A stretch of DNA of 64,000 bases from Candidatus Bathyarchaeota archaeon (GTDB taxonomy: Archaea > Thermoproteota > Bathyarchaeia > TCS64): contig JAGTRB010000001.1 in NCBI GenBank assembly GCA_018396865.1, forward strand, positions 133,970 to 197,969, in the 5' to 3' direction. Below the pieces are notes generated by a model, which saw only the letters and a program-made list of their open reading frames with translations, had not been told where the DNA came from and ran no database searches. The stretch's first letter is position 1. Each line of letters begins with the position of its first letter. Below are positions 4,704 to 25,697 of the stretch, in pieces. A program made the translations under genes and the position numbers.

Positions 4704-5798
4704 TTGAGGTTTCTGCATTTACCGGACTTCGACCTGGTTATAGAGCTCCAGCTCAAGGAGTGGGAGGAGCTGGCCCCGAGGCCCAACGCAGACCTGCTGC
4801 CCCCCGACCCATCCCTAGAGGGAACTGGAAGAAGCTACGTCGCCCGCCTGGATGAAGCTTATCCTATTTCTCGTGAAGTGGGATGGAGAGCCAGAGCCAG
4901 GGAGGAAGAGAAGAAGGATCTCGAAGCCAAACTCGTCGAGTACCTCTGGTGGATGAGGAGGCAGGGATACGCCGATGAGACGATCAGGGGTTACGTGCTG
5001 GCCCTTAAGGTCCTAGCCGCAAGGGGTGCAGACCTCAACTCCCCAGAGTCGGTGAAGGAGGTTATAGCTAGACAAAAATGGTCCGGGAACAGGAGGAGGA
5101 ACGTGATAAACGCCTATTCGCTATTCTTGAGGATGGTTGGAGGCCGCTGGGAGAAGCCAAAGTGCGAGGTTGAGCAGAAGATCCCCTTCATACCAACCGA
5201 ACAGGAGATAGACGCCCTCATAGCAGGATCGAACAGGAGGCTCTCAACGTTTCTACAGCTACTTAAGGAGACGGCGATGAGGGCCGGTGAGGCCATTAGG
5301 CTGGAGTGGACGGATATAGATTTCGAGAGGCGCCTCATAACCCTGAATAAACCAGAGAAAAGAAGCAGCCCAAGGGTCTGGAGGGTGAGCAACGAGCTCC
5401 TGGCGAGGCTAATGACCCTTCCAAGAGAGGGGAAGAGGATCTTCCCAACATATAACAACATGAAGGGAGTATTCCTAAAAACAAGGAAGAGGTTAGCAAA
5501 CAAACTCCAGAATCCAAGAATAGAAAGAATAACCTTCCATACATTTAGACACTGGAAAGCCACAATGCTATACCACCAAACAAGAGACCCATACTACGTA
5601 AAACAGTTCTTGGGACATAAAGCCCTAAACAACACAGAGATCTACATAACAATAGAGAAAACAATATTCGGAGAGTACAACGACGAGTTTATAGTAAAGG
5701 TAGCGAGCAGGCCCGAGGAGATAAAAACCCTCCTAGAGACGGGATTCGAGTACATATGCGAGAAGGACGGCCTGATGTTCTTCAGGAAGCGCGCATAA
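4704..5798 (+). mobile_element. int: Tyrosine recombinase / phage-type integrase
   Basis: SAM-like N-domain; catalytic signature R...HTFRHWKAT...LGHKAL...TEIYI (R, H-x-x-R, H, Y); 56 nt upstream of tRNA. Confidence 0.85.
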
Positions 5799-5823
5799 AA
5801 GCTCAACAGCCAACCCCTAAACC

Positions 5824-5832
5824 TTAAAAAGT
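5824..5832 (+). promoter_or_regulatory. Putative TATA-like box for tRNA (CTTAAAAAG) ~26 nt upstream of tRNA 5-prime end
   Basis: A/T-rich box at appropriate archaeal promoter spacing; a second A/T box TTATAAAAAA lies at 5841-5850. Confidence 0.3.
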
Positions 5833-5853
5833 TACCGGGGTTATAAAAAATAG

Positions 5854-5960
5854 GCCGGGGTTGCATAGCCTGGCTAATGCGCTGGACTCATGATCCAGAG
5901 GGCTGTGGCACCAGCGCCCAGGCCGGATAGAGATCATGGGTTCAAATCCCATCCCCGGCA
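5854..5960 (+). tRNA. tRNA-Met (anticodon CAT at 5889-5891; elongator-type G1:C72, could be Ile2-CAU) with ~32-nt intron at a non-canonical position (between anticodon stem and T-stem, 5899-5935)
   Basis: Acceptor GCCGGGG/CCCCGGC, D-stem GCAT/ATGC, anticodon stem CTGGA/TCCAG with loop CTCATGA, T-arm ATGGG-TTCAAAT-CCCAT, discriminator A, then T-run CTTTTT; 37 nt where 4-5 nt variable loop expected. Confidence 0.75.
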
Positions 5961-8414: not shown

Positions 8415-10316
8415 GTGGTGGATAAGTTGCCGTTTGGATATAACGGAAAGGCCCTATGGGTGGATCTCGAGAGCGGGGGGATGAGGGTTGAGGAGCCTTC
8501 AGAGAGCTGGTACAGGATGTATCTTGGGGGTATGGGGGCCGTGGCCTACCACCTCCTCAGAGAGCTGGAGGTAGGAGTGGATCCCCTAGGCCCAGATAAC
8601 ATCTTGGTGATGGCGACGGGAGTAATAACCGGCGCTCCATTCTCAGGGAGCGGGCGAAACGCCGTGGGCGGAAAATCCCCACTAACCGGAGGCTTCGGGG
8701 AGTCTGATGTTGGAGGCTACTGGGGGGCTGAGCTGAAGCACGCCGGCTTCGACGCCATAATCTTCAAAGGGGCCTCGGAGGAGCCCGTCTGGCTCTGGGT
8801 TGAGGATGGGAAGGCCGAGCTGAGGGACGCCTCAAGCCTCTGGGGCCTCGAGGTTGGGGATTGCCAGGATAGGATGAGGGAGGAGGTGGGTGAGCCCCAG
8901 GCCAAGACGGCCCTCATAGGACCTGGAGGGGAGAGGATGGTCAGGTTCGCCTCCGTCATCAACGATCTCAACCATGTAGCTGGAAGAGGCGGAATGGGCG
9001 CTGTTATGGGGTCCAAGAAGCTGAAGGGGGTGGCTGTGAGGGGCCACAACCCTCCGAAGGTTGCGGATCCAGAGAGGGTTAGGGAGCTGGCCAGGCTCGT
9101 CAACTCTAGGATACCGACCGAGTCTCGGAGCCTCCACGAGTACGGGACCGGAGCGGCGATGGACGCCTACGCTGAGACGGGGAACCTCCCGACGAGAAAC
9201 TTCAGGGATGGAGGCTTCAAGGAGGTCACTGAGATAGACGCGATAACCCTCAAAAAGAGGTTCATCGTTAGGATGGAGACCTGCTACGCTTGTGGGGTGC
9301 GCTGCAAAAAGGTTGTTGAGCTTAAGGAGCCCTACATCGTTGAGGCGAGGTATGGGGGACCGGAATATGAAACCCTAGCAGCCCTCGGCTCAGACTGCGG
9401 TGTCTCAGACCTAGCCGCCATATGCAAGGCCAACGAGCTATGCCAGAGGTATGGACTTGATACGATAAGCACCGGGGCCACAATAGCCTTCGCCATGGAG
9501 TGCTACGAGAACAAGATAATCACTAAGGAGGATACCGGCGGGATCGACCTGAGATTCGGGAACGCTGAGGCCATGGTCAGGATGGTTGAGATGATCGGGA
9601 GGAGGGAGGGGCTAGGAGACCTGTTGGCCGAGGGGGTGAAGAGGGCCTCGGAGAGGCTTGGAGGGGGAGCGGAGGCCTACGCCATCCACGTGAAGGGTTT
9701 GGAGGTCCCGATGCATGAGCCGAGGTTGAAGAAGGGGCTCGGCCTAGGCTACGCCGTCTGCCCCATGGGCGCGGATCACTGCGCCAACTTCCACGACACC
9801 TTCATGACGCCCGAGAACTACTTGAGGGTAAGGCCCCTCGGGATCCTCGAGGAGGTCCCGGTCGACAGCCTGGGAGGGGATAAGGTGAGGCTGTATAAGA
9901 GGTGGACGGAGATGAGGGTGGTCGCCAACAGCCTATCCATCTGCCAGTTCCCACCTTGGAGGTTCACGGAGTATGTGGACCTGGTTCAGGCTGTCACTGG
10001 ATGGGACATATCGATACTGGAGCTCGCTGAGGCCGCTGAGAGGATCATCACCCTGGCCAGGTTATTCAACGTGAGGGAGGGCCTAACATCAGCTGACGAC
10101 TGGCTCCCTGGGAGGTTCTTCCAGCCTCAGACCTCGGGCCCCCTATCCAAGAGGGCGATGGATCCCCAGGAGCTCAGGAGGGCTATAGACCTCTACTACG
10201 AGATGATGGGCTGGGACAGGGATGGGATACCCTTACAAGGGACCCTCGAGAAGCTCGGGATCGGGTGGGCTGAGGAGCATCTCCCCTTCAAAGGGACTGA
10301 GAGGCTGATAGTCTGA
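8415..10316 (+). CDS. aor: Aldehyde:ferredoxin oxidoreductase family (tungstopterin enzyme)
   Basis: N-term FGYNGKALWVDLESG...YLGGMG, 633 aa, AOR_N plus AOR catalytic domains; GTG start. Confidence 0.85.
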   Translation: MVDKLPFGYNGKALWVDLESGGMRVEEPSESWYRMYLGGMGAVAYHLLRELEVGVDPLGPDNILVMATGVITGAPFSGSGRNAVGGKSPLTGGFGESDVGGYWGAELKHAGFDAIIFKGASEEPVWLWVEDGKAELRDASSLWGLEVGDCQDRMREEVGEPQAKTALIGPGGERMVRFASVINDLNHVAGRGGMGAVMGSKKLKGVAVRGHNPPKVADPERVRELARLVNSRIPTESRSLHEYGTGAAMDAYAETGNLPTRNFRDGGFKEVTEIDAITLKKRFIVRMETCYACGVRCKKVVELKEPYIVEARYGGPEYETLAALGSDCGVSDLAAICKANELCQRYGLDTISTGATIAFAMECYENKIITKEDTGGIDLRFGNAEAMVRMVEMIGRREGLGDLLAEGVKRASERLGGGAEAYAIHVKGLEVPMHEPRLKKGLGLGYAVCPMGADHCANFHDTFMTPENYLRVRPLGILEEVPVDSLGGDKVRLYKRWTEMRVVANSLSICQFPPWRFTEYVDLVQAVTGWDISILELAEAAERIITLARLFNVREGLTSADDWLPGRFFQPQTSGPLSKRAMDPQELRRAIDLYYEMMGWDRDGIPLQGTLEKLGIGWAEEHLPFKGTERLIV

Positions 10317-10626: not shown

Positions 10627-11028
10627 CTAAATGAACAGAGCCCTCACTCCAAAATCTCCGGCTACCTTAACTTGTTTATCATCCCTCGATATCAATTCAA
10701 CTTTACGCCTCCTCGCCAATTCTATGTATAACGCGTCATATATCGATACATCGCCTTTAAACGCTATGTTAAACGCTTCTTCTAGTAGGGCCTCTTGACT
10801 CTCAATTTTAATGTTAATATTTAATAGATATTTTAGGGCCTCAAATGCCTTTCCGACTTCTTCAAGCTTTAACCTGTTCCTCCTATAAGCTAGTAAAATG
10901 GCGTTGGCGACTTCCTTCAATACTAAATCTAAACTAATGGTACCCTCTAATATAAATTTCCTAATCTCTTCAAATCCTTCCTCCCTTAAGAGATATGCTG
11001 AAAGTGCTGAAGCATCAATGACCTTCAC
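10627..11028 (-). CDS. vapC: PIN-domain ribonuclease toxin (VapC-like)
   Basis: VIDASA..., DALYIELA, ISRDD acidic residues of PIN fold; 133 aa. Confidence 0.7.
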   Translation of the reverse strand: MKVIDASALSAYLLREEGFEEIRKFILEGTISLDLVLKEVANAILLAYRRNRLKLEEVGKAFEALKYLLNINIKIESQEALLEEAFNIAFKGDVSIYDALYIELARRRKVELISRDDKQVKVAGDFGVRALFI

Positions 11029-12921: not shown

Positions 12922-13374
12922 TTAGGGGATATCCTCCGGAACTCTTCTTTTAACCCACCCCACTGAGTCAAAATCGTCATCATATGAAACTATCGTTTCC
13001 ATGGAAAGCTCTTTCAGAGCTTGAACCGCGAGGGCATCGTCGAAATCCAAGCCATAATCCTTCATCATGAAGGTAGCCCTTATCCGGCCCCTTAACCCCA
13101 TAGGATAGATCTGGAGCCCCCTATAGCGGAGGAGGGAGGACAGGAACAATGCCAGCTCCTCCCAGGTTTTACCGTAATTCTCCATGACAACTAAGATAGA
13201 GTCCACGTGGAAGTCCGTTATCGCCGACCTGATGGAGCCCTCCCTCACCCTCCTCAAGAATCTTTTACAAGCCTCTGCATGCTGCTCCGCCAATGCCACC
13301 TCTAGGAATATGTTCGAGTCAATTAACACAGCGGTATCCAAGGGCCTTCCCAGCCCTGATTCTCCGAGCCTCAT
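12922..13374 (-). CDS. vapC: PIN-domain toxin (VapC-like); start uncertain
   Basis: AVLIDSNIF N-terminal strand, DDALAVQALKELSMETIVSYDDDFD; upstream overlapping RHH gene. Confidence 0.65.
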   Translation of the reverse strand: MRLGESGLGRPLDTAVLIDSNIFLEVALAEQHAEACKRFLRRVREGSIRSAITDFHVDSILVVMENYGKTWEELALFLSSLLRYRGLQIYPMGLRGRIRATFMMKDYGLDFDDALAVQALKELSMETIVSYDDDFDSVGWVKRRVPEDIP

Positions 13375-13609
13375 GCTGAAGCTCCACCCCAGACCTCTCA
13401 ACGTGGGAGAGCATGCCATAAATAGCCTCCACCGGATCCTCTACGGATTCTGCGACCTCGAGGACCTCCGAGACCTGAGATAGCCAAGCGCTGAAGGCCT
13501 TCTCGGAGGCGACGCTCAGCGACCCCCGGCCATAGCCGTAAAGCCTCATCGCGGCCTCCCTGAACCTCCGCTCCAGCTCGTCGGGTATATAAACCTTGAT
13601 TCCACCCAT
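13319..13609 (-). CDS. vapB: RHH (CopG/Arc-type) antitoxin
   Basis: MGGIKVYIPDELERRFREAAMRLYGYGRGSLS typical RHH; overlaps PIN gene. Confidence 0.55.
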   Translation of the reverse strand: MGGIKVYIPDELERRFREAAMRLYGYGRGSLSVASEKAFSAWLSQVSEVLEVAESVEDPVEAIYGMLSHVERSGVELQHEARRIRAGKALGYRCVN

Positions 13610-13848: not shown

Positions 13849-14433
13849 TTAAATATTGATATCTCTATAATATCTTGTGCTTGGACAACCTAAACATTTG
13901 TTTTCATTATATCTAAGACATTTTCCGCAATTTATGCCACACGGTGCATCTTCTTCAGATTTATCGGTGAAGAGTCTTATTGGTATGAATTTAGGTAATT
14001 CTGGTGTTTCACCTATTATCACCTCGGAGCGTCTGATTCCCTTATGAACCCTTATGGAGCAAACCTCAACCATAGAATTCAGAGTATCCATGTCTTCAGC
14101 GATCATGATAGTCATCAAATTATATTCTCCAGTGGTTCTCGTTATGAAAATGGCTCTAGGACATTTAGAAAATATTTTCATCAATTCTCTCTGAAGCTCG
14201 TGAGTTTCAGCCTCACAATTTACTATCACAATTCTAAATCCTAGTTTATCTATGTTCATTCCAGCATAGATATTTACGAGATTTTCTTCACATAGATTCT
14301 TCAATCTGTTCCCTACCGCTACATGAGATAGCCCGAGCATCCTGCCCATCGAGCTGAGAGAGGCTCTTCCATCCCTGAGGAGTATTGAATAGATCCTCTT
14401 ATCCAGCTCATCCATCATTACAAAATGTAACAA
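13849..14433 (-). CDS. Lrp/AsnC-family transcription regulator fused to C-terminal Cys-rich (CX3CX2C...CX2C) metal-binding tail
   Basis: N-term HTH (LSSMGRMLGLSHVAVGNRLKNL) plus RAM-like domain; tail CGINCGKCLRYNENKCLGCP; divergent from molybdoenzyme operon; AT-rich. Confidence 0.7.
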   Translation of the reverse strand: MLHFVMMDELDKRIYSILLRDGRASLSSMGRMLGLSHVAVGNRLKNLCEENLVNIYAGMNIDKLGFRIVIVNCEAETHELQRELMKIFSKCPRAIFITRTTGEYNLMTIMIAEDMDTLNSMVEVCSIRVHKGIRRSEVIIGETPELPKFIPIRLFTDKSEEDAPCGINCGKCLRYNENKCLGCPSTRYYRDINI

Positions 14434-14446
14434 AAGAGATATATTT

Positions 14447-17149
14447 ATGTTTCTAATTTATAAACTGGCTGTGATGAAAGATACAAGTCTTATTTTGTCA
14501 GCTTCTTCGGAAAGCGATGAAGATATAGAACTGAAGTACGGATATTGCAGAAATAACTGCATGCTTCATTGCGGAAGGATAGCCGTTGTGAAGAATGGAA
14601 GGGTTGTTGAAATTCGCGGTTGGAAAGGCCATCCCATAAGCGACGGGAAACTCTGCGCTAAGGGATTGGCTGCGATCGATGACACGTACAGTGAAAACAG
14701 GATTCTTTACCCGATGAAGAGGGTTGGAGAAGAATTTGAAAGAATTGGCTGGGAACAGGCACTGAACGAAATTGCTGAAAGGCTCCGAGAAATACGTAAG
14801 GAATGGGATGGAAAGCCTCTTCATGATATGACTGCCGAGGAGCTTAGAAGGGTCGCTCGGTATGCTACTCCAAGAAACTCATGTGGAGAGGCAGAATTTT
14901 TAATTTATATGAGGTTCGGTAGGGCATTCAAATCAGCCCCCCACTATTCTGGATGCATAGCTTGCAACGGCAACTGGTGGAGAGCGCGACTCGCCGTTAC
15001 AGGACACGAGCACCCAGTCAATCCTATAGACACTATCATTGACTCTAAACTCATCTTAGACTTTGGTTATAACATAGCCGAAACAGCTGTTGTAGCCTTT
15101 AAGTGGATAAGAAAAGCGAGGGATAATGGAGTAGAGTTCATCTACATCGACCCTAGGTATACAAAAACAGCTGCTGGAGCAAGCGAATATATACCCATTA
15201 GACCAGGAACTGATGGCGCATTAATCCTAGGAATAATGTATGTCCTCATAGAAAACAATTGGACCTATCCGTACCTGCAATATTATGTTGACGAGAAAGA
15301 GTATGAAGACTTCGTTGAGAAGGTTGTTAAGAAATATCCTCCGGAGAAAGTTGAGAAGATCACATGGGTTCCATCAGCTAAGATAAGAGAGTTAGCACAG
15401 AAAATCCATGAAGCTGGACGTAAAGTTGCTATAATCTCCGGCTCGCGCACGAGCACACAGACAAATGGATTCGATACCGGAAGATTATTTGCTATATTAA
15501 ATTTGATGATTGGCTGTTATGGGGTATCTGGAGGCGGAGACTACAACCCTAAACCGGGAGTCGTCCCCTCCCACTATATTCCATGGGCTGCAGCGGCTCC
15601 ACATAAATATCCAGAATTCATGTACCCCGATGATCCACACCACTGGGGTAAGGGCTGGATTCCCGAGGCCGCCTGGCCTCAGGTAAAAGAACAAATGAAA
15701 GCATATATCGGTTTAGGTGGAAACCCGATTGTCCGGGCAGCAGGAGATCAGCGAGGGGTCTTTGAACACTTGAAGAAGAACGGGTTGGTGGTAGTTGGCA
15801 CAGCTGAATGGAACGAAATGTGCGATTATGCCCATTACATACTTCCATTGACAACCGATCTCGAGTCATCGGGTTCAACAATTTTATGTTCAACCAATCG
15901 TGCCGTGCAATGGAAGGATGCAGCAGTTCCCCCGCTTGGAGAGGCTAAACCCGACTGGTGGATCATGAATGAACTAGCCCATAGAATATTCGGGGATGAA
16001 ACCATGTTCAGGGAATGCCCAGACTGCGAAAGGAGGGTAAAGGAGATTCTAAGACAAGGAGGCATATTAGACGAGGCTTGGGAAGAACTTATAGGGCAAT
16101 ATCTCGATGAAATCCACACACGCCTATCAAAGGGAGAGAATATAGACGATATCGCCGCTGACCTTGCCAAAAGAATCGGTCATGATCCAAGTAATCACAA
16201 ATATGTCATAAGAAACATTGAATTACGCTACCGTTTAGAATTTAAAAAGTTGGGTGAAAAGGTCGGATTTGACCTTGACAACCATGGCCTATTATGGCCC
16301 TACAACATATTCAAGCAGGGACCAGAAGCAATATACTGGTACTGGTGGAAATTCAACATGATTTTATGGCCAGTACCACCAGGATCCCCTGCAGAGAAAG
16401 AACCAGAAAAATATCATCCATTCTCAGGGCTTAGGCTAGATATCGTGAAACAGAGGGGCGTCGTCTACTTCCCAGCCCCACTGTTTCTGATGGAGGAAGA
16501 CCCCAACTACCGCGGGGAGAAAGTTGAATTCGAGAGATGTCCAGGGTGCTGGAAAAAGAGCACAGAGATGGGGTTACCCGATATACCCCTACTTTGGACC
16601 CCATCTGAAAGGTGGAATGGCAAGACGGGGGGCTTCTATCCATGGAAGGCTGGGAAGGCTTACATTGACCTGAAAGGGGAAACATGGAATGGCGCAGGCC
16701 TTCCAGAGTGGAAAGAACCGGCGGAATCTCCTAAAGACACAAGTGAAAAGATCGATTGGAAAGAAGAATATCCTTTGGTAATGACCACTGGCAAGCTTAC
16801 ACATCTGATGACTGGCCACAGCCAAAACATTAACGAACTTCTTTTAAGGATTGATGAAAAGCCTTCTGTTTGGATCCATCCATCCACCGCTGAATACTTA
16901 GGAATCAAGGATGGAGATATCGTCAAGATAATAACTCCTAGGTCGCCCAAAAACGGCCTGAAAATGAGGGTTAAACTGACTGCGCGTATTCATCCAAAGA
17001 TAGTATTCGTACCAACCCACACGGGTCCGAAGGCGATAAGTGAAGATTTCCGAAATGAGGGTGTAATGCTTGTAACATCAACGGGTGAGGATCCATACAC
17101 AAGAATGGTTGGATATAGCACAAATGCTTGCAGAGTTGAGAAGGTGTAG
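14447..17149 (+). CDS. Molybdopterin (Mo/W-bisPGD) oxidoreductase catalytic subunit, DMSO-reductase/formate-dehydrogenase superfamily, no Tat signal
   Basis: N-terminal FeS motif C-x3-C-x3-C-x27-C (YCRNNCMLHCG...KLCAKG), ~890 aa, molydopterin-binding regions, no RR motif; start may be ATG 14474. Confidence 0.8.
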   Translation: MFLIYKLAVMKDTSLILSASSESDEDIELKYGYCRNNCMLHCGRIAVVKNGRVVEIRGWKGHPISDGKLCAKGLAAIDDTYSENRILYPMKRVGEEFERIGWEQALNEIAERLREIRKEWDGKPLHDMTAEELRRVARYATPRNSCGEAEFLIYMRFGRAFKSAPHYSGCIACNGNWWRARLAVTGHEHPVNPIDTIIDSKLILDFGYNIAETAVVAFKWIRKARDNGVEFIYIDPRYTKTAAGASEYIPIRPGTDGALILGIMYVLIENNWTYPYLQYYVDEKEYEDFVEKVVKKYPPEKVEKITWVPSAKIRELAQKIHEAGRKVAIISGSRTSTQTNGFDTGRLFAILNLMIGCYGVSGGGDYNPKPGVVPSHYIPWAAAAPHKYPEFMYPDDPHHWGKGWIPEAAWPQVKEQMKAYIGLGGNPIVRAAGDQRGVFEHLKKNGLVVVGTAEWNEMCDYAHYILPLTTDLESSGSTILCSTNRAVQWKDAAVPPLGEAKPDWWIMNELAHRIFGDETMFRECPDCERRVKEILRQGGILDEAWEELIGQYLDEIHTRLSKGENIDDIAADLAKRIGHDPSNHKYVIRNIELRYRLEFKKLGEKVGFDLDNHGLLWPYNIFKQGPEAIYWYWWKFNMILWPVPPGSPAEKEPEKYHPFSGLRLDIVKQRGVVYFPAPLFLMEEDPNYRGEKVEFERCPGCWKKSTEMGLPDIPLLWTPSERWNGKTGGFYPWKAGKAYIDLKGETWNGAGLPEWKEPAESPKDTSEKIDWKEEYPLVMTTGKLTHLMTGHSQNINELLLRIDEKPSVWIHPSTAEYLGIKDGDIVKIITPRSPKNGLKMRVKLTARIHPKIVFVPTHTGPKAISEDFRNEGVMLVTSTGEDPYTRMVGYSTNACRVEKV

Positions 17150-17152
17150 GAG

Positions 17153-17731
17153 GTGGGGGAAAAAATGTATGGAATACTCGTTGATGTAGACGAATGTATA
17201 GGATGCCATGCCTGCGAAGTCGCATGCAAAAACTCGCATGAGTTTCCAAAAGAGATCATGGTGCAACGGGTTATTTCAGTTGAGGAAGGCGAATTCCCCT
17301 CGGTCAAAATTCTTCAATCACCTGTTGAGAGGTGCATGCACTGTCTAGAACCAGCATGCGTTTCAGCATGCCCATTCGGCGCAATAACAAAGACCGAGCG
17401 GGGACCAGTAATTATAGATCACGAGAAATGCACCGGATGCCAGCTATGCGTAAAAGCATGCCCATGGAAAATTCCGAAGTTCAACTTAGAAACAAGGAAG
17501 GTTTACAAATGCGACCTATGCTACAATAGACTCCAGGAGGGCCTACATCCAGCATGTGTTGAAGTCTGCCCGGTTGGAGCATTAAAATTTGGAGATCGTG
17601 AGGAACTCCTCAAAGAAGCCAAATCCAGGAAGAGGTATGTTTACGGCGAGGTTGAGGCTGGCGGTACATCGCTCATTTACGCCTCGAATGAGCCTTTAAC
17701 AAAGATAGGCTTACCAAAACTGATTCCATAA
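17153..17731 (+). CDS. Four-cluster [4Fe-4S] ferredoxin-type electron-transfer subunit (FdhB/PsrB/DmsB-like)
   Basis: Four Cys clusters: CIGCHACEVAC, CMHCLEPACVSACP, CTGCQLCVKACP, CDLCYNR...CVEVCP. Confidence 0.8.
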   Translation: MGEKMYGILVDVDECIGCHACEVACKNSHEFPKEIMVQRVISVEEGEFPSVKILQSPVERCMHCLEPACVSACPFGAITKTERGPVIIDHEKCTGCQLCVKACPWKIPKFNLETRKVYKCDLCYNRLQEGLHPACVEVCPVGALKFGDREELLKEAKSRKRYVYGEVEAGGTSLIYASNEPLTKIGLPKLIP

Positions 17732-17734
17732 GAA

Positions 17735-18025
17735 TTGGAGATTTTAGCCCTTAACCCAGATGCGCAGAGGGCATTTGCCGAATTTCGTTTAGCAATTCTA
17801 AAAGGCGATAAAATATTGTCGCAAAGGGTCAAACGGCTTCTCGCGATTGTTGCATATGCGGTGGCTGGATGTGAGGAGTGCGTAGAAGAATGCACAAAGG
17901 AAGCACTTTCAGAAGGAATAAAAGGAGATGAAATACTTTATGCTCTTACGGTAGCATGTCTCGTTAATGGAGGCTCAGCCCTTAATACCTGTAAAAGGGC
18001 ATTCAAAATTCTCAGAGAAAAATGA
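17735..18025 (+). CDS. AhpD-like / carboxymuconolactone decarboxylase family core-domain protein
   Basis: AVAGCEECVEECTKEA (CxxC-x3-C in place of CxxCxxxH), 96 aa; TTG start. Confidence 0.55.
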   Translation: MEILALNPDAQRAFAEFRLAILKGDKILSQRVKRLLAIVAYAVAGCEECVEECTKEALSEGIKGDEILYALTVACLVNGGSALNTCKRAFKILREK

Positions 18026-18037
18026 AGATATTTAAAG

Positions 18038-18406
18038 GTGAAAAATAAAGTGAAGGAAGAAGTTTCAAAGAAAATTGAAACATTTAAAGAGGAATTCGGC
18101 AAGATATTAGATCCAGTAGCCTTTATAAAAGAAAAAGATGAAGAACTATGCAAGGCCTTCCTGGAGCTTCATGAACTTACAGTGAATAAGGGAGTTATAT
18201 CCAAAAAGCTGAAATTTTTGATGCATGCCGCCATAACAGCTTCATTACACGATGTTGAAGCGACCGCGATGCACCTTACAGGCGCACTAAAGGGGGGCGC
18301 CACCGACGATGAGATACTTGAAACAGCCTTCACGATAATACCTGTAGCAGGAATGCCAGCCTTCTCGATTTTCCTTAATGCCATTAGAAGAGTAAAACCA
18401 TTATAA
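18038..18406 (+). CDS. Carboxymuconolactone decarboxylase (CMD) family protein, Cys-less
   Basis: 122 aa, CMD-like helical pattern HAAITASLHD...; GTG start. Confidence 0.5.
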   Translation: MKNKVKEEVSKKIETFKEEFGKILDPVAFIKEKDEELCKAFLELHELTVNKGVISKKLKFLMHAAITASLHDVEATAMHLTGALKGGATDDEILETAFTIIPVAGMPAFSIFLNAIRRVKPL

Positions 18407-19352: not shown

Positions 19353-19742
19353 ATGATGAGTATGCCAAAAATAGGGATTGTTGCATGCAACAGTGGTGCT
19401 TCAAACACAGGATACCTAACTGGGTTGGCTGCACTTAAAGCTGTTAGGATTTTTGGAAGTGAGAAGGTTGGAATCTGCTCATTGCCTGCATTGGCTAACA
19501 ACACTCCAAGACAAACAATGCTTACTAAAAAAATCGAACATCTTATCGTTATTGATGGTTGCCGCAATGAATGTGCAAGAAGAATATTAGACAGTTTAGG
19601 AATTAAATATGAAAATTACTTAAATCTTGAATATGATCTTCAAATCAAAAAATTGGGACCATTTACAACCATGAATTATTCCATAAAAGATCTTGAAAAA
19701 GTTTCTTCAGCAATTATAAAAAAGATACAAGAGATATATTAG
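19353..19742 (+). CDS. DGC-domain protein (putative zinc-binding)
   Basis: IVACNSGAS...IDGCRNECAR motif, 129 aa. Confidence 0.6.
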   Translation: MMSMPKIGIVACNSGASNTGYLTGLAALKAVRIFGSEKVGICSLPALANNTPRQTMLTKKIEHLIVIDGCRNECARRILDSLGIKYENYLNLEYDLQIKKLGPFTTMNYSIKDLEKVSSAIIKKIQEIY

Positions 19743-19996
19743 CTTGGAATTAAATCTATGAGAAAATGGTATTTGCTAAGTCTTCTCATATTTAAAAAAT
19801 ATAAGAATAATGCCTTTCAACATTAATTAAATAATAAAATTAGCTAACTTACTTACAAAGAACGAAAGTTATGATAAAGATGTGTTAGACTTCGAAGGAT
19901 AAAAAGAAGTTCTTTTTACTTACAATCTGTAATAAAGTTTCAAATTATAACAAAATGTATATAAAAGCCCATTTTTAATTTTTTTGAGGGTTTATT

Positions 19997-21472
19997 TTGT
20001 CTGTTGAAGTCTTTCTTTCCTTTTTAAGGAACCCTCTGATAAGACCTATGATTCGCTCTTCTATATCTCCTAAAAATAGGAGAAACTATTTAGAATCTGC
20101 ATTAAATGGCTTAGTTGGAAACAAGACTTCATATTCTTTGAATGAAATTATTTTCTCAAGAATAATTGGTTTGGTTCTAAATCTTGGATTTTTGGCTTTC
20201 GATATCGATAAAAAAGATGCTATCAACTCCCTTAAAATCCCATACTTTAGAAACGGTCTATTTAATGTTCTAGATAGTATAGGTAAATATGGTGTAAATA
20301 AACCCTTAGTACTTTCAGCACCCTTTCTTGTTGTCTGGAACTATACTAATGCCTGTAATCTTAAGTGTAAGCATTGCTATCAAAGCGCGGATAAGCCTTC
20401 CCCAGACGAGCTAACAACGGAAGAGAGTTTTAGGATCGTTGATCAGTTAAGCGAAAGCAAAGTCTCAGCCATTGCATTCTCCGGAGGAGAGCCTTTAATT
20501 AGGGAAGACCTCTTTAGAGTCGCTAGATATGCCCACGATAGGGGTCTCTACGTCTCAATAGCCACAAATGGAACCTTACTAACTGATAATGTGGTGGAGG
20601 AACTTAAGCAGAGTCGTGTTGACTACATAGAGATAAGCCTAGATTCATCAAGGGAAGAGAACCACGATACATTCAGGGGTGTGAGAGGAGCCTTTAAAAG
20701 AACAATGGAGGGAATAAAAAATGCTGTAGAAAAAGGATTTTATACATGCATAGCCATAACCGCTACAAAAAATAACATTAATGAAATTCCTGATATGATT
20801 GACATCGCTAAAAAAATCGGTATTAAGAGAGTTATAGTTTTCAATTTCATACCCACAGGAAGAGGTAAAGAAATCGAAGATCTTGACCTATCTCCAATAG
20901 AAAGGGAAGATCTTCTTAAATACTTATATATGGAGCTAGTTGAGGGGCGAATAGAGGTCCTATCCACAGCTCCACAATACTCAAGGGTATGTTTGCAGCA
21001 GTCCATCGCAACCAGGAGGGGTTTCCTCGCTCCGACCCATTTCGCGGCTCTCGACCTCCATGGGAGAACAAAGAGGTTAGCAGACTTCATAGGGGGATGC
21101 GGTGCAGGAAGGCTTTACTGCGCAATCCAGCCCAACGGCCAAGTAACTCCCTGCGTCTTCATGCCCATAGTTGTTGGCGATCTCAGGAAGCAAAGCCTAA
21201 GGGAAGTTTGGCTGAACTCAGGGGTTATGAACGACCTAAGAGACAGAAAAAGACTAAAAGGAAGATGTAGAAACTGCAAGTATAGAGATCTCTGCGGTGG
21301 ATGTAGAGCCAGGGCATACGCATATTATGGAGACTATTTAGCACCAGACCCAGGATGTATAAGGGAATTGGAAGAGCCAAGCACCCAGTTTTCAATTATC
21401 TCAGCAAAACCTTCAATAACAGTTTCTTCTTCTAGAAATCCAAATTTAAAAGATAATATTTTCTCGATGTAA
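19997..21472 (+). CDS. Radical SAM enzyme with C-terminal SPASM domain and ~110-aa N-terminal extension
   Basis: CNLKCKHC (CX3CX2C), GGEPL; SPASM clusters CGAGRLYCAIQPNGQVTPC and CRNCKYRDLCGGCRARAY; TTG start, alt ATG 20048. Confidence 0.8.
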   Translation: MSVEVFLSFLRNPLIRPMIRSSISPKNRRNYLESALNGLVGNKTSYSLNEIIFSRIIGLVLNLGFLAFDIDKKDAINSLKIPYFRNGLFNVLDSIGKYGVNKPLVLSAPFLVVWNYTNACNLKCKHCYQSADKPSPDELTTEESFRIVDQLSESKVSAIAFSGGEPLIREDLFRVARYAHDRGLYVSIATNGTLLTDNVVEELKQSRVDYIEISLDSSREENHDTFRGVRGAFKRTMEGIKNAVEKGFYTCIAITATKNNINEIPDMIDIAKKIGIKRVIVFNFIPTGRGKEIEDLDLSPIEREDLLKYLYMELVEGRIEVLSTAPQYSRVCLQQSIATRRGFLAPTHFAALDLHGRTKRLADFIGGCGAGRLYCAIQPNGQVTPCVFMPIVVGDLRKQSLREVWLNSGVMNDLRDRKRLKGRCRNCKYRDLCGGCRARAYAYYGDYLAPDPGCIRELEEPSTQFSIISAKPSITVSSSRNPNLKDNIFSM

Positions 21473-21546: not shown

Positions 21547-21948
21547 CTATATAATTTTTATGAGTAGCTGAATATTTTTCATCACTTCAGACCTTGAAAC
21601 ACTATAGAAGGTCCATTTTCCCTTTCTCCTTTTCTCGATCAAACCAGCATTTTCAAGTATATTTAAATGATGAGAAATATTAGACTGTGAAATATTTAAT
21701 ATCATCACGATCTCACAGACACACAAATCATATATATTTAAAAGACTTAAAATTTTTATCCTTGTAGGATGTGATAATGCCTTAAAAACTCTACTAACGT
21801 TCCTTACCTTCTCTTTAATACTAAAAACGTCATCTTTAAGTTCTCTCAATCTTTCTTTATATTCATCTAAGTCCTTAATATCGAGTAAACCGGACTCAAC
21901 CAATCTTTTTAATTGTTCATCTATAGCAAAATCTTTCAACAATTTCAA
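21547..21948 (-). CDS. arsR: ArsR/SmtB-family metalloregulator
   Basis: ALSHPTRIKILSLL...CVCEIVMILNISQSNISHHLNILENAGLI winged HTH with CVC metal site. Confidence 0.75.
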   Translation of the reverse strand: MKLLKDFAIDEQLKRLVESGLLDIKDLDEYKERLRELKDDVFSIKEKVRNVSRVFKALSHPTRIKILSLLNIYDLCVCEIVMILNISQSNISHHLNILENAGLIEKRRKGKWTFYSVSRSEVMKNIQLLIKII

Positions 21949-22213
21949 GAGTTCCCCCTATCATGGTCAACCACCTCCAGCTAATAAATAAATGAATTTA
22001 AATATTTTGATTTAATGGAGTGGAGTTTCAAAGGGATCCTTTCTTTCCCATACCTCTTAACTGCTAATAATCCTTGAGTTATGAGGGCTTCCCCGCTCGA
22101 ATGGAAGACATGAATCAAAAAATTTAAATATTTCGATTTGAGCTTGAAGCGAAGGATGTCAAATAAAAGAGAAAGACGCGAAGATTATGTCTTTAAGGAT
22201 GGAGGTGTCGTTG

Positions 22214-22573
22214 ATGGAAAGGGTTAGGGTTGAAATTTATGAGGGGGATCCCTTCGTGGGCTGCTGCGGGCCTAGAATAGCCTCTAAGGAGGATGTTGAT
22301 AGGCTGAGAAATATGCTTACTGAGAGAAACCACATAATAAAAGCCTTGAAAGAAGAATTTAAGGACAAGATAGAGATTGAGAGGGATATAATAAGCACTC
22401 GAAGGCGGCTTGAAACATATCCAAGGCACATCTATAAGCTTCTAGTAGCTGGCATAAAGGTGCCATTCGTCGTTATAGAAGGCCAGCTCGCCCTAGAGGG
22501 GGAATTCCCCAACCTCGAGGAATTCAGGAGCCTCATAAAAGAGCATATTGATAAGCGTCATAAAAGCCCCTAA
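22214..22573 (+). CDS. ArsD-like arsenical metallochaperone/repressor family protein
   Basis: VEIYEGDPFVGCCGP vicinal Cys near N-terminus like ArsD Cys12-Cys13; ~120 aa thioredoxin-like fold pattern. Confidence 0.5.
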   Translation: MERVRVEIYEGDPFVGCCGPRIASKEDVDRLRNMLTERNHIIKALKEEFKDKIEIERDIISTRRRLETYPRHIYKLLVAGIKVPFVVIEGQLALEGEFPNLEEFRSLIKEHIDKRHKSP

Positions 22574-22594: not shown

Positions 22595-22876
22595 ATGAAG
22601 AAGGTTGTCGCTGAGGTGCTTGGTCCAAACCCACCATGTTATAGATGCATGGAGCTTAAGAAAAACGTCGAGGCTGCTGCTAAGAGGCTTGTAGCTGAGG
22701 GGATAGAGGTCGAGGTGAAGAGGCTCGACATAATTTCGAGGGAGGCCATCAGGAGGTATGGCCTGCTTCTCTCCCCAGCGTTAACGGTTAACGGGGTTGT
22801 CGTGACCATGGGCTGGATACCAGACGAGGAGGTCGTCGAGGAGATCCTGAGGGAGGCTGCAGATAAGCGATCATGA
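22595..22876 (+). CDS. Thioredoxin-like redox-active disulfide protein (Thioredoxin_3 type)
   Basis: 93 aa, CxxC as PPCYRC, LTVNGVVV pattern. Confidence 0.65.
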   Translation: MKKVVAEVLGPNPPCYRCMELKKNVEAAAKRLVAEGIEVEVKRLDIISREAIRRYGLLLSPALTVNGVVVTMGWIPDEEVVEEILREAADKRS

Positions 22877-22885
22877 GGTGAGAGT

Positions 22886-23917
22886 TTGAATAGTATTCGA
22901 CTCCTCCGAACCGGTCTTCTGCTGGGCTTTGTATTGGCTGTCTTCGGAGCCCTGATCTATTCTAGGATTATGGCATACTCCCTAGCGCCAACCATGAAGC
23001 CAGCCCACTTCCAGGGGCTGAGCCCCTGGGAAATACCCTTGGCATACATCATAGATTATCTAAGCCATGGTTGGCTCTGCCTGCTCTTCGCCTTCGTTGC
23101 CGCGGGCCTCGTCTACGAGTTTATGCCAAAGGAGGTGATCACCAAGTATATGGGCAGCAGCAAAGCCATGGGATACGCTTTAGGTGCGGGTATCGCGCCC
23201 TTCTTCACGGTCTGTTCATGCACCATGGTACCGCTATTCGCAGGCATACTTTACACCGGCTCAGGGATCGGTCCAGCCATAACCTTCCTCTTGACGGCTC
23301 CAGCAGCTAACATATTAACAATCCTACTTACAGGAGAAATCCTATCATGGGAGTTGGCCATCGTCCGAGTGATAGCATCCCTTACAACCGCTGTCGCAGC
23401 TGGTCTAATAATCTCGAAAACACCCTGGGGAAAGACCGTCGAGGAGGAGCATCAACTCACCAGCCAAAATCCTCAATATAATGTTCAGATCGTAAAGCCG
23501 CTTTTAGATGAGAGATTATTGGCAGCATTAAAGTTTAGCAGCTACCTTGCGAAGAGGATCCTACCCTACTTTTTCCTAGGCCTTGTGGTGGTCAGCTATG
23601 TTGAGGCTTACATGGCTGAAGAGGTTGTAGCCACATACCTTACTGGGATCAGCGGAATACTCCTTGCCTCCGTCATAGGTGGACCACTATATACGCCCAC
23701 CCTTGTTGAGATAGTCCTAGGAAGGGGCCTGATGGACCTAGGGATGTCAAAGGCAGCGATGCTCTCTTGGCTGATGGGCCAACCATACGATATCCCCAAC
23801 ATGATCGCAACCTCCAGGATAGTGCGTTGGAAGGTCGTTCTGACCTACGCAGTAATAGCGTGGATCTTCAGCGTCACATTCGGCTTAACTTACGGCCTTC
23901 TCTCGAGATCCTTATAA
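22886..23917 (+). CDS. Predicted permease of the DUF318/ArsP-like family
   Basis: Multi-TM 343 aa with conserved TVCSCTMVP Cys motif; TTG start. Confidence 0.65.
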   Translation: MNSIRLLRTGLLLGFVLAVFGALIYSRIMAYSLAPTMKPAHFQGLSPWEIPLAYIIDYLSHGWLCLLFAFVAAGLVYEFMPKEVITKYMGSSKAMGYALGAGIAPFFTVCSCTMVPLFAGILYTGSGIGPAITFLLTAPAANILTILLTGEILSWELAIVRVIASLTTAVAAGLIISKTPWGKTVEEEHQLTSQNPQYNVQIVKPLLDERLLAALKFSSYLAKRILPYFFLGLVVVSYVEAYMAEEVVATYLTGISGILLASVIGGPLYTPTLVEIVLGRGLMDLGMSKAAMLSWLMGQPYDIPNMIATSRIVRWKVVLTYAVIAWIFSVTFGLTYGLLSRSL

Positions 23918-23977: not shown

Positions 23978-24613
23978 ATGAGTGAGATAGATATTTTCAA
24001 GAAGATGCTGGAGGCAGAGGAGAGGAGAAAGAGGAGAGAGAAATCACTAGTCAACGTTATAGAGATAAGGAAGGTCCTCCCCTGCCTTACAACCCCTGGC
24101 TACATCAGGTTCGAAGCCATGGCTGATAGAGAAATTGGGGAGGTCATCCCCCTGATCTTCCTCCAGTTCCCTCCTGGAAGGTCACACTACAACCCGGCCG
24201 AGGGGACGCTGACCCTGAACATCTATAATAGGATGATAACCCTCCACCCGGACGGAAGGGTCGCCGTCACCAATACAAGGGACCTCGAGGAGGCGGGGGA
24301 GGTTCTCGAGAAGATCAAGTCCTTCATTAACAAGGCCTACTCAACATATTTACGAACCGGGCCGCCAGGCGAGGATGCGGTGGAGGCAGCCATGAAGATC
24401 TCATGGATGGACATATACCAACACCTCCCGAAGACCAACTGCGGAGAATGCGGATACCCAACATGCCAAGCCCTGGCTCTCAAGGCTCTGCTAGGTGAGG
24501 CCAAGCTCTCCCAATGTCCAAGGCTGACAGAGGCTAAATATCTCTCCTCTCGGAATGGGCTGAAAAGGGATCTCGGCCCATTCTTAGCCAAAACCTTGGG
24601 ATTGGATATATAA
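23978..24613 (+). CDS. Uncharacterized N-domain fused to RnfB/AcsC-type Fe-S cluster domain (paralog of 18755)
   Basis: LPKTNCGECGYPTCQALALKALLGEAKLSQCP; N-domain aligns with 18755 protein. Confidence 0.55.
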   Translation: MSEIDIFKKMLEAEERRKRREKSLVNVIEIRKVLPCLTTPGYIRFEAMADREIGEVIPLIFLQFPPGRSHYNPAEGTLTLNIYNRMITLHPDGRVAVTNTRDLEEAGEVLEKIKSFINKAYSTYLRTGPPGEDAVEAAMKISWMDIYQHLPKTNCGECGYPTCQALALKALLGEAKLSQCPRLTEAKYLSSRNGLKRDLGPFLAKTLGLDI

Positions 24614-25051: not shown

Positions 25052-25306
25052 ATGGTTGAGAAGATTAGGGTTGGAGTTCGAGGGCAGGTGGTCATCCCTA
25101 GAAGGCTTAGGAAAAAACTGAAGCTTGAACATGGAACCATCCTTATGGTGGAGGAGACCGGGGATGGGCTCCTCTTAAGGCCGTATGAACCTGTGAAGGA
25201 GATGAAAGGGCTGGGGAGGGGAATCTTCGGAGACCCGATTAAATATCAGAGGAGAATCCGAGAAGAGTGGGGTGCAAAAAAGCTTGAGGATCGCGTTGGA
25301 CACTAA
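25052..25306 (+). CDS. vapB: AbrB/MazE-family (SpoVT/AbrB swapped-hairpin) antitoxin
   Basis: KIRVGVRGQVVIPRRLRKKLKLEHGTILMVEE; overlaps downstream PIN gene. Confidence 0.6.
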   Translation: MVEKIRVGVRGQVVIPRRLRKKLKLEHGTILMVEETGDGLLLRPYEPVKEMKGLGRGIFGDPIKYQRRIREEWGAKKLEDRVGH

Positions 25307-25697
25307 CATACTCATATATTTTCTTGAGGGGATAGAGCCCTACTCTAGTAGGGTTGAGAGCCTCATGAACTCCTTCATGAAGGGAGACAACGAGGGGATA
25401 ATCTCAACGATAAATGTCGCAGAGATCTTGACAGGATTCTATACATCAGGGGATGAAGATGGAGCAGCAAAGACGAAGATGCTCCTCACAGACCTCACTC
25501 TAAACAATTTTGAGATAGTCCCAGTCACCTTTGATATCTCCGATCTAGCCGCAAAGCTTAGGGCGAAGAGGGGAGGAAGGCTGCCCGATGCATTGATTGT
25601 AGCCACGGCGATAAACCGAGGAGCTGAGATTTTATTCTCTAATGATGAGGACATCAAAAGGTTCGAAGAGGATATTAAGGTTTCAAAACTCGAATAG
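25272..25697 (+). CDS. vapC: PIN-domain toxin (VapC-like)
   Basis: IALDTNILIYFLEG, VAEILTG, DALIVATA, FSNDED acidic residues. Confidence 0.7.
   Translation: MQKSLRIALDTNILIYFLEGIEPYSSRVESLMNSFMKGDNEGIISTINVAEILTGFYTSGDEDGAAKTKMLLTDLTLNNFEIVPVTFDISDLAAKLRAKRGGRLPDALIVATAINRGAEILFSNDEDIKRFEEDIKVSKLE

Follow-up and report, generated by a model that had tools for sequence, protein, structure and literature searches.

A rare clade of DMSO reductase superfamily enzymes with a soluble, anchor-less archaeal branch and a possible role in metalloid or chalcogen reduction

The window analyzed here is a 64,000-nt stretch of a Candidatus Bathyarchaeota archaeon genome (assembly GCA_018396865.1, contig JAGTRB010000001.1, positions 133,970 to 197,969 of the forward strand). 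It carries a cluster of six genes that opens with the two subunits, alpha and beta, of a predicted molybdenum- or tungsten-dependent oxidoreductase of the dimethyl sulfoxide (DMSO) reductase superfamily. The window locus was compared with the sister archaeal loci L001, L002, L007, L009 and L092-L095. Close relatives of alpha from the protein search are numbered P0001-P0011, of which P0001-P0003 are sister sequences. The features of the cluster are as follows (AhpD-like proteins belong to the carboxymuconolactone decarboxylase family, CMD):

14447..17149, plus strand: alpha (catalytic) subunit, longest open reading frame of 900 aa, assigned to the molybdenum/tungsten-bis(pyranopterin guanine dinucleotide) (Mo/W-bisPGD; DMSO reductase) superfamily
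14546..14656, plus strand: predicted FS0 [4Fe-4S] binding motif C34-x3-C38-x3-C42-x27-C70, from regular expression, family alignment and Pfam
14942..14983, plus strand: active-site segment HYSGC170IAC173NGNWWR, with C173 the inferred Mo/W ligand and C170 a family-specific second Cys
16004..16756, plus strand: family-specific, mostly helical insertion (approximately residues 520-770) between the Molybdopterin and Molydop_binding domains
17153..17731, plus strand: beta subunit, predicted four-[4Fe-4S] ferredoxin-type electron-transfer protein (Pfam Fer4_11, E 3e-27)
17729..17731, plus strand: in-frame TAA that splits the beta::AhpD-like fusion, standing where fused orthologs have GAA (Glu)
17735..18025, plus strand: CMD1, AhpD-like protein (Pfam CMD PF02627, E 2e-12)
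18038..18406, plus strand: CMD2, second AhpD-like protein, without CxxC (Pfam CMD, E 5e-11), found beside alpha/beta in L001, L007 and L009
18431..18754, plus strand: DUF1805 protein (Pfam DUF1805, E 2.4e-13), kept in L001, L007, L009 and L093
18755..19300, plus strand: FeS1, protein with a C-terminal PF04060 [4Fe-4S] domain (Pfam FeS, E 1.4e-13), with an ortholog in the L001 operon

Both the 900-aa alpha frame and the 192-aa beta frame are present, and the proteins probably start within them: alpha at Met10 (14474; 891 aa, NCBI annotation MBS7651657.1) and beta at the ATG at 17165, which is preceded by a GGAGGTG ribosome-binding site (188 aa, NCBI MBS7651658.1). NCBI names the two 'molybdopterin-dependent oxidoreductase' and '4Fe-4S dicluster domain-containing protein', and nothing more specific. 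All the way from alpha to FeS1 the gaps between genes are at most 24 nt. Comparison with L001 gives the same dN/dS, 0.06, for alpha and beta, and values of 0.07 for CMD1, 0.12 for CMD2, 0.11 for DUF1805 and 0.05 for FeS1; because these ratios fall between 0.05 and 0.12, all six genes are judged to be functional and under purifying selection. At 17147-17165 the beta reading frame continues in the same frame after the alpha TAG stop (TAG GAG GTG ...). An alpha-beta fusion produced by read-through of this TAG was rejected as unlikely, since beta lies in another frame in L001 and the frame relation is thus not kept. Stop-codon recoding has been reported for some related archaea (PMC9723677).

The alpha family is very rare. 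A word-indexed search of 5.8 billion proteins, with identities determined by BLASTP, returned 11 close relatives (P0001-P0011, 41-91% identity), beyond which the score steps down to 222 bits, from 707. When 1.84 billion representatives of 50% clusters were searched exhaustively with a profile, three family clusters and an intermediate protein, P0121 (504 bits), came out ahead of the next match at 276 bits. Only four of 185,579 species-representative genomes contain the family, namely one Jordarchaeia metagenome-assembled genome (MAG), two Chloroflexota and one Nitrospirota. Group A is archaeal and leaderless and reads CRNNCMLHC at the N-terminal cysteines. Group B, from Chloroflexota, has a twin-arginine translocation (Tat) leader, RRxFLK, and CRGTIGCMAYC (Cx5Cx3C). 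Group C is Nitrospirota-like, with a Tat leader and CKNVCHLAC, and P0121 combines a Tat leader with CDNPCSHQC. Literature searches, which covered DUF1805, the DGC domain, Bathyarchaeia molybdoenzymes and Jordarchaeia, found no published account of this enzyme family.

Alpha contains the Pfam domains Molybdop_Fe4S4, Molybdopterin (PF00384, E 8.8e-39) and Molydop_binding (PF01568, E 1.1e-14). Its AlphaFold2 model (pLDDT 85, pTM 0.90) matched more than 50 DMSO reductase-family structures with a Foldseek probability of 1.0, the best being Fdh, Nap and Psr at identities of no more than 20% and a query-normalized TM-score of about 0.65. The domains, the four-domain fold, the FS0 cysteines and the ligand column all fit the Mo/W-bisPGD superfamily, to which alpha is assigned. 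The shortfall in TM-score corresponds to the helical insertion of approximately 250 residues. No Pfam match was found in this insertion (about residues 520-770); AlphaFold2 predicts helices at residues 503-693, and the region is shorter in group C and P0121.

The active-site segment follows a pattern, HYSGCxxCxGN(W/F)(W/L)R, that is common to all family members. In an alignment of 70 diverse homologs, C173 is one of ten invariant columns, and it is aligned with the Cys ligand of the formate dehydrogenases 9vap and 7bkb. In the 9t1s alignment a masked residue X (probably selenocysteine, Sec) falls at position 174, one past C173. The other cysteine, C170, is invariant within the family only and aligns with the Cys of the 'CAR' motif in 9vap/7bkb; between C170 and C173 alpha has one residue fewer than the formate dehydrogenases. 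We infer that Mo/W is ligated by C173. The residue that follows it is Asn in alpha and N, F or Y across the family.

The original prediction, made from the sequence alone, had singled out the N-terminal cysteines of alpha as an atypical C-x3-C-x3-C-x27-C motif. The spacing itself was confirmed. By regular expression the translation reads CRNNCMLHCG...KLCAKG, i.e., C34-x3-C38-x3-C42-x27-C70, and these four cysteines are invariant in an 11-member family alignment spanning 43-90% identity and fall within the Pfam Molybdop_Fe4S4 (PF04879) match at residues 34-81 (E 5.5e-10). By these alignments the motif is a genuine, conserved cluster-binding site and no chance pattern. HMMER places one extra residue after the first Cys relative to the Cx2C enzymes, and within the family the first spacer is x3 in groups A, C and P0121 and x5 in group B.

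'Atypical', on the other hand, holds in part: the motif does differ from those of Psr, Phs, Arr and Fdh, but it is a known variant, and the first three cysteines have the same spacing in Escherichia coli DmsA, the translation of which reads CTVNCGSRC...(32)...C, i.e., Cx3Cx3C like alpha. In the nomenclature reportedly introduced by Rothery et al. 2008, a Cx3Cx3C arrangement such as that of DmsA and alpha counts as the 'type II' Cys group of DmsA/NarG-type enzymes. A CGVNC segment of NarG is quoted in PMC5123574. Cx2Cx3C occurs in 136 of the 265 DMSO reductase-family proteins retrieved, and the exact pattern Cx3Cx3Cx27C is seen in about 14 proteins that do not belong to the query family; this spacing makes up about 8% of the related enzymes retrieved. 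Ten of the approximately 14 were scanned and most scored best as DmsA/YnfE-like or DMSO_red_II-like, none reaching a family cut-off. The motif as an unprecedented feature was rejected, given E. coli DmsA and the approximately 14 unrelated enzymes. The alpha spacing stands out only when Psr, Phs, Arr and Fdh are the yardstick and is no novelty in itself, from which follows a lesson for annotation: Cx3Cx3C spacing alone does not mark novelty.

Against the curated NCBIfam models, every score of alpha was far below the cut-off. The top match was Fdh-alpha (TIGR01591; 260.5 bits, cut-off 666). The other models include PhsA (NF012032; 201 bits, cut-off 694, the motif also being Cx3Cx3C, not Cx2Cx3C), DmsA/YnfE (TIGR02166; 181.8 bits, cut-off 777.7), TtrA (64 bits, cut-off 1750) and ArrA (NF041714; 53.7 bits, cut-off 1600). 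By these scores, alpha is in the DMSO reductase superfamily yet in none of the curated families tested. The ligand column holds a cysteine (the inferred C173), and alignment gave no placement in a characterized clade with the canonical motif. The earlier caution that the substrate cannot be inferred by eye was well founded.

Beta contains 16 cysteines in four ferredoxin-type groups, in which four [4Fe-4S] clusters are expected from the sequence. It resembles DmsB, HybA and HmcB, all below cut-offs (136.7 bits for TIGR02951, the DmsB type). The Pfam domains, the fold and this four-cluster beta bear out the pairing of a DMSO-reductase-type catalytic subunit with a ferredoxin subunit, as first proposed. 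Two further claims of the original prediction, that there is no twin-arginine leader and that no membrane-anchor gene follows the ferredoxin subunit, also proved correct. The first 60 residues of alpha contain no RR dipeptide, and no Tat motif appears at any possible start. A hidden leader was rejected: an upstream stop and a divergent AsnC/Lrp gene that ends 13 nt from the open reading frame leave no room for an extension, and P0001-P0003, as sister sequences, are likewise leaderless. Neither the operon nor the sister contexts examined contain a NrfD, DmsC or cytochrome b gene. Alpha, beta, CMD1, DUF1805 and FeS1 are all free of transmembrane-like segments, CMD2 showing a single marginal hydrophobic window. 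No TorD/NarJ-family (PF02613) gene was found among the window open reading frames scanned. Compared with complex iron-sulfur molybdoenzymes, the window has, as far as sequence can tell, the four-cluster beta beside alpha, but not the anchor, the Tat leader or the TorD/NarJ chaperone. Of the predicted 'soluble heterodimer', the cytoplasmic part stands, with neither Tat leader nor anchor, but the enzyme is not a plain heterodimer, as the sister betas are fused to an AhpD-like domain. We regard the soluble, anchor-less architecture and localization as highly probable. Ferredoxin, the probable electron partner in the original prediction, is one candidate; the conserved partners suggest as others the AhpD-like dithiol domain and the PF04060 Fe-S protein, alone or together. 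Among the window open reading frames scanned, which did not take in every small one, there was no transporter gene for molybdate or tungstate.

In every sister genome with an intact beta gene, beta is a 287-294-aa fusion with an AhpD-like, Cys-rich CMD domain (L001, L007, L009 and L093), and among the best 120 beta homologs listed such fusions are confined to the archaeal clade. In the window, the TAA at 17729..17731 interrupts this fusion. The split of beta and CMD1 is judged to be genuine because the identical 188-aa beta occurs on at least five further contigs; a sequencing error was rejected on this ground and because CMD1 is still under purifying selection. Since the TAA is real, CMD1 is a separate gene in the window. 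Its motif GCEECVEEC (Cx2Cx3C, nt 17870-17893) is invariant in all fusions and corresponds to the AhpD CxxCxxxH with His replaced by Cys. The closest solved structure, the hypothetical protein 3bey, has CxxCxxxH at that position, and the best NCBIfam matches are arsenosugar-associated and ArsM-fused AhpD-like proteins, far below cut-offs.

The other genes of the cluster travel with the enzyme to different degrees: CMD2 and DUF1805 always accompany archaeal alpha/beta, most contexts also include a PF04060 Fe-S protein, and a DGC-domain protein is usually present. DUF1805 matched among solved structures only the hypothetical protein 1qw2. The PF04060 domain of FeS1 is of the type found in CdhG and at the RnfB N-terminus, which makes FeS1 a candidate soluble redox partner. 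Downstream, at 19353-21472, a DGC-domain 'putative zinc-binding protein' is paired with an AhbD/NirJ-like radical S-adenosylmethionine (SAM)/SPASM gene that has a 110-aa N-terminal extension. The same pair recurs in many Bathyarchaeia without the molybdoenzyme (L097-L100). The window DGC (19353-19742) as a core operon member was rejected, its subtype being widespread in Bathyarchaeia and paired with radical SAM/SPASM without alpha. The DGC of L001 and L093 is of another subtype. Thus, the window DGC, for which no matching solved structure was found, probably lies outside the molybdoenzyme system.

The bacterial relatives help to place this arrangement. In the group B loci (P0007/P0006/P0009) the genes are TorD-like, Tat-bearing alpha, beta and NrfD, and in the group C locus (P0010) a SoxA/TsdA-like cytochrome c, Tat-bearing alpha, beta, cytochrome b and TorD-like. 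By gene content and leader, these relatives are classical respiratory enzymes. Compared with them, the archaeal clade appears to have lost the Tat leader, the TorD-like chaperone and the anchor, and to have gained the beta::AhpD-like fusion. What is new would be this loss together with the fusion and the set of CMD2, DUF1805 and Fe-S proteins; the Cys spacing is ordinary. The Asgard MAG of Ca. Jordarchaeia archaeon QZM_A3 (L009, 10010-12669) holds an alpha that is 85% identical to that of the window and frameshifted (open reading frames of 725 and 203 aa), beside an intact beta::CMD fusion. Near-identity across phyla suggests a recent horizontal transfer or mis-binning.

The surroundings of the operon contain further genes that bear on the interpretation:

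13849..14433, minus strand: AsnC/Lrp-type regulator, divergent from alpha, whose C-terminal tail APCGINCGKCLRYNENKCLGCP is rich in Cys (Pfam HTH_AsnC-type, E 5e-11)
21547..21948, minus strand: ArsR/SmtB metalloregulator, CVC pair kept (Pfam HTH_5, E 1.7e-21; NCBIfam HTH_metalloreg NF033788, 98.9 bits against a cut-off of 55)
22595-22876, plus strand: thioredoxin-like protein, MTH895/ArsE family (Pfam Thioredoxin_3)
22886-23917, plus strand: ArsP_1-family permease with a CSC motif (Pfam ArsP_1)
23978..24613, plus strand: FeS2, second PF04060 protein (Pfam FeS, E 1.9e-13), with a similar gene beside ArsR in L009 and L093

The tail of the AsnC regulator (CGINCGKC...CLGC) looks like an Fe-S or metal-binding module, and an ortholog with the same tail adjoins the cluster in L093/L094 (L093, 12041-12610). 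ArsR is linked to the cluster in four contexts, i.e., L001, L009, L093 and the window. In L001 it is co-oriented with alpha and lies 16 nt upstream of it, and in L009 and L093 it is nearby. In an alignment, E. coli ArsR C32 and C34 (ELCVCD, in helix alpha3) are invariant in the four cluster-linked proteins. The ELCVCD site binds As(III)/Sb(III) in ArsR and soft metals in CadC. The thioredoxin-like and ArsP_1 genes form a pair that stands immediately upstream of ArsR-alpha in L001/L002. By NCBIfam the permease shows a weak likeness to the SO_0444 and SaoE efflux families, and Haft and Gwadz discuss ArsP_1-type permeases as a thiophilic-metal efflux family (bioRxiv 10.1101/2022.07.06.499078). 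An SBF/ACR3-like transporter adjoins the cluster in L009. Between ArsR and the thioredoxin-like/ArsP genes of the window, at 22187-22573, there is a 128-aa protein with a vicinal GCCGP, for which ArsD (E 0.0076) and a family of thioredoxin-like selenoproteins (E 0.0013) gave only non-significant matches. No ArsC, ArsA, ArsB or ArsM was found among the window open reading frames scanned.

We propose that the window encodes a member of a cytoplasmic, anchor-less archaeal branch of a very rare DMSO reductase superfamily clade, which reduces a thiophilic metalloid or chalcogen substrate. For this statement as a whole we would put the probability at roughly 0.55. The assignment of the substrate class to a metalloid/chalcogen oxyanion or organometalloid (As, Sb, Se or Te) is, taken by itself, tentative. 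From its sequence, the enzyme is a soluble alpha/beta complex with five predicted [4Fe-4S] clusters, FS0 and four in beta. The proposed path of electrons links Mo/W at C173, by way of FS0 and clusters FS1-FS4 of beta, to a low-potential soluble partner, for which a ferredoxin, the PF04060 Fe-S protein and the AhpD-like dithiol domain, or a dithiol acting through CMD1, are candidates. The AhpD-like domain would sit where the respiratory relatives dock their quinol-oxidizing anchor, and it could couple thiol/disulfide chemistry to the chain or capture a thiophilic product. The substrate would be reduced in the cytoplasm, the product captured by the Cys3 AhpD-like domain together with thioredoxin-like proteins, and then exported by the ArsP-type permease, under the control of the CVC-type ArsR and the Cys-rich AsnC regulators. 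A more specific version, that of a thiol-coupled Mo/W-bisPGD reductase for arsenate, antimonate or pentavalent organoarsenicals (e.g., methylarsenate) in which the AhpD-like Cys3 domain replaces the anchor, is doubtful. In that version, the AhpD-like domain would deliver dithiol electrons or hand the trivalent product to ArsP.

Several observations weigh against the proposed metalloid/chalcogen reductase. No characterized close relative of alpha was found, and on the nearest curated models alpha reaches 54-260 bits, where the cut-offs are 666-1600. The preference for C173 over C170 is made on alignment alone, and in one pairwise alignment PsrA Cys173 falls on C170. Regulators of the ArsR family abound in archaea, and some respond to signals other than metals. 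The surroundings in L007 and L093 lack the ArsP/thioredoxin pair, and for the SBF-family transporter of L009 the ACR3 and bile-acid symporter models give equally weak scores. Mechanistically, electron transfer from [4Fe-4S] to a dithiol domain would be demanding. Finally, the SoxA/TsdA-like cytochromes beside the bacterial relatives point to sulfur chemistry.

Sulfur chemistry is in fact the alternative that survives best. The enzyme would then be a cytoplasmic reductase for polysulfide, persulfide, thiosulfate or tetrathionate. Its C170, the thioredoxin-like protein and the Cys-containing AhpD-like domain would serve to carry sulfane sulfur or to resolve mixed disulfides, and the respiratory versions would be those of the bacterial relatives. 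A gene for a small SoxA/TsdA-type cytochrome c adjoins the group C homolog, and one lies near a homolog of group B; the best matches in sequence and fold include PsrA and PhsA, the active site has a CxxC pair, and TusA, DrsE_2, NifU_N, cysteine desulfurase and TauE flank the cluster in L001/L002. These sulfur-relay genes, however, are on the opposite strand in L001 and are absent from the window and L093. Alpha falls far below the PhsA (201 bits, cut-off 694) and TtrA (64 bits, cut-off 1750) thresholds, and the CVC metal(loid) site is present in the linked ArsR proteins; BigR, the model for a sulfite-sensing member of the ArsR family, gives 52 bits (cut-off 155). We consider a sulfur substrate possible, though somewhat doubtful.

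An organic substrate is unlikely. Here alpha would act with a neighboring aldehyde:ferredoxin oxidoreductase (AOR), either as an aromatic hydroxylase/dehydroxylase or as an acetylene-hydratase-like hydratase. Indeed, the window has a gene of the tungstopterin-dependent AOR family (8415-10316) 4 kb upstream, and another adjoins a group B homolog in L089 (2743-4512), the cluster of which also includes a Toluene_X (FadL-like) porin. Acetylene hydratase is matched significantly, at 1e-27 with the single sequence and at 2.4e-42 with the profile, and the large helical insertion could shape a hydrophobic funnel. Several genes, including an aminotransferase, nevertheless separate the AOR from the operon, and AOR is absent from the L001, L007 and L009 contexts. 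Moreover, aromatic-degradation genes do not accompany the archaeal cluster, and the regulators are of metal- or redox-sensing types.

A divergent cytoplasmic formate dehydrogenase or CO2 reductase was rejected as very unlikely. Formate dehydrogenases do provide the top NCBIfam match (TIGR01591, 260 bits) and the top PDB sequence and fold matches, but that score is far under the cut-off of 666 and identity to the structures does not exceed 20%. In addition, the residue after C173 is Asn, not His as in 9vap (ICHS) and 7bkb (ICHG), the His after the ligand being catalytic in formate dehydrogenases, and no Fdh accessory or partner genes are nearby. Least probable of all is that a respiratory operon gained by horizontal transfer is here decaying and no longer functional, a view to which the nonsense codon in the window beta::CMD, the frameshifted alpha of L009, the fragmented alpha of L092 and the GC-mosaic region near an integrase and a tRNA would lend themselves, but which is opposed by dN/dS of 0.05-0.12 in all six genes, the detached CMD1 included, by the intact cofactor-binding cysteines and by the identical split form in several independent assemblies.

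The cluster with the molybdoenzyme may belong to an island that was integrated or gained by horizontal transfer. Downstream of an integrase and a tRNA, GC content is a mosaic, with 0.58 at 8-10 kb, 0.44-0.46 over alpha/beta, 0.36 at 18-22 kb and 0.50-0.58 in the housekeeping part. A phage-type integrase (4704-5798) directly adjoins an intron-containing tRNA (region 4704-5960); the tRNA, 107 nt at 5854-5960, is called by Rfam, and ARAGORN reports no tRNA. A PIN-domain toxin gene (25272-25697) lies just downstream of the cluster, two small open reading frames upstream of it (10627-11028 and 12922-13419) may be of a similar kind, and HEPN/nucleotidyltransferase toxin-antitoxin pairs flank the cluster in L001 and L093. 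Elsewhere in the window, two ketol-acid reductoisomerase paralogs (36891-37883 and 41180-42169) lie on the same strand less than 5 kb apart, with an acetolactate-synthase-like thiamine pyrophosphate enzyme (38395-40083) between them.

The DMSO reductase superfamily is a major source of new chemistry, for respiration as well as for detoxification, and each of its deep, uncharacterized clades is a candidate for a new substrate. The present clade shows a clear transition in evolution, with exported, anchored respiratory enzymes in bacteria and soluble ones in archaea that carry an AhpD-like domain for the anchor. If the AhpD-like domain couples Fe-S clusters to thiols or chaperones a metalloid product, it would represent a new wiring of molybdoenzymes, and it could also point to a reductase still missing from the anaerobic cycles of arsenic, antimony or selenium. 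If the arsenate/antimonate/organoarsenical version is true, Bathyarchaeia would possess an ArsC-independent, molybdoenzyme-based handling of metalloids.

Comparison with known systems brings out what is shared and what is not. First, E. coli DmsABC shares with the window enzyme the Cx3Cx3C arrangement of the first three FS0 cysteines and a four-cluster beta of DmsB type. Unlike it, DmsA has a Tat leader, the DmsC anchor and the DmsD chaperone, none of them found in the window, and its spacer between the third and fourth Cys is 32 residues, as opposed to 27 in alpha. The metal ligand of DmsA is Ser, whereas the ligand column of alpha holds Cys. Second, Thermus thermophilus PsrABC (2vpw) and Salmonella PhsABC are similar in having a Cys-ligated Mo-bisPGD alpha and a four-cluster beta, and their gene order alpha-beta-NrfD is matched by the group B relatives. 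Psr matches alpha with E 2e-40 in sequence and 1.3e-33 in Foldseek at about 20% identity. PsrA, however, has Cx2Cx3C, a Tat leader and an NrfD-type anchor, and is without the approximately 250-residue insertion and the second active-site Cys of alpha. Third, the Fdh/Nap/Nas lineage (9vap, 1aa6, 2nap) gives the best sequence and fold scores, and the ligand segments are homologous, the aligned formate dehydrogenases having C-A-R-x-(Cys or masked X, probably Sec) where alpha has C-x-x-C. Alpha differs in lacking the His after the ligand, in having one residue fewer between the cysteines and in its accessory genes.

Two other systems resemble the window in only some respects. The pyrogallol-phloroglucinol transhydroxylase of Pelobacter acidigallici is a soluble, cytoplasmic two-subunit member of the DMSO reductase family, with an alpha of about 875 aa, an Fe-S beta and no anchor; its alpha has no FS0 and a Ser ligand. 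It is thus like the window enzyme as a soluble, anchorless alpha-beta pair, and unlike it in having no AhpD-like domain; it did not appear among the PDB sequence matches or the 50 best Foldseek matches listed. The ars operons (ArsR, ArsD, ArsP, ACR3), on the other hand, resemble the surroundings of the cluster, with the CVC ArsR, the CSC ArsP_1 permease and the MTH895/ArsE thioredoxin-like protein nearby. They differ in that the reductase candidate of the window would be a molybdo- or tungsto-enzyme, and the ArsD match of the 128-aa protein is non-significant. To our knowledge, no molybdo- or tungsto-enzyme serves cytoplasmic arsenic detoxification. By analogy with the systems compared here, the window enzyme would work like a complex iron-sulfur molybdoenzyme minus its membrane module.

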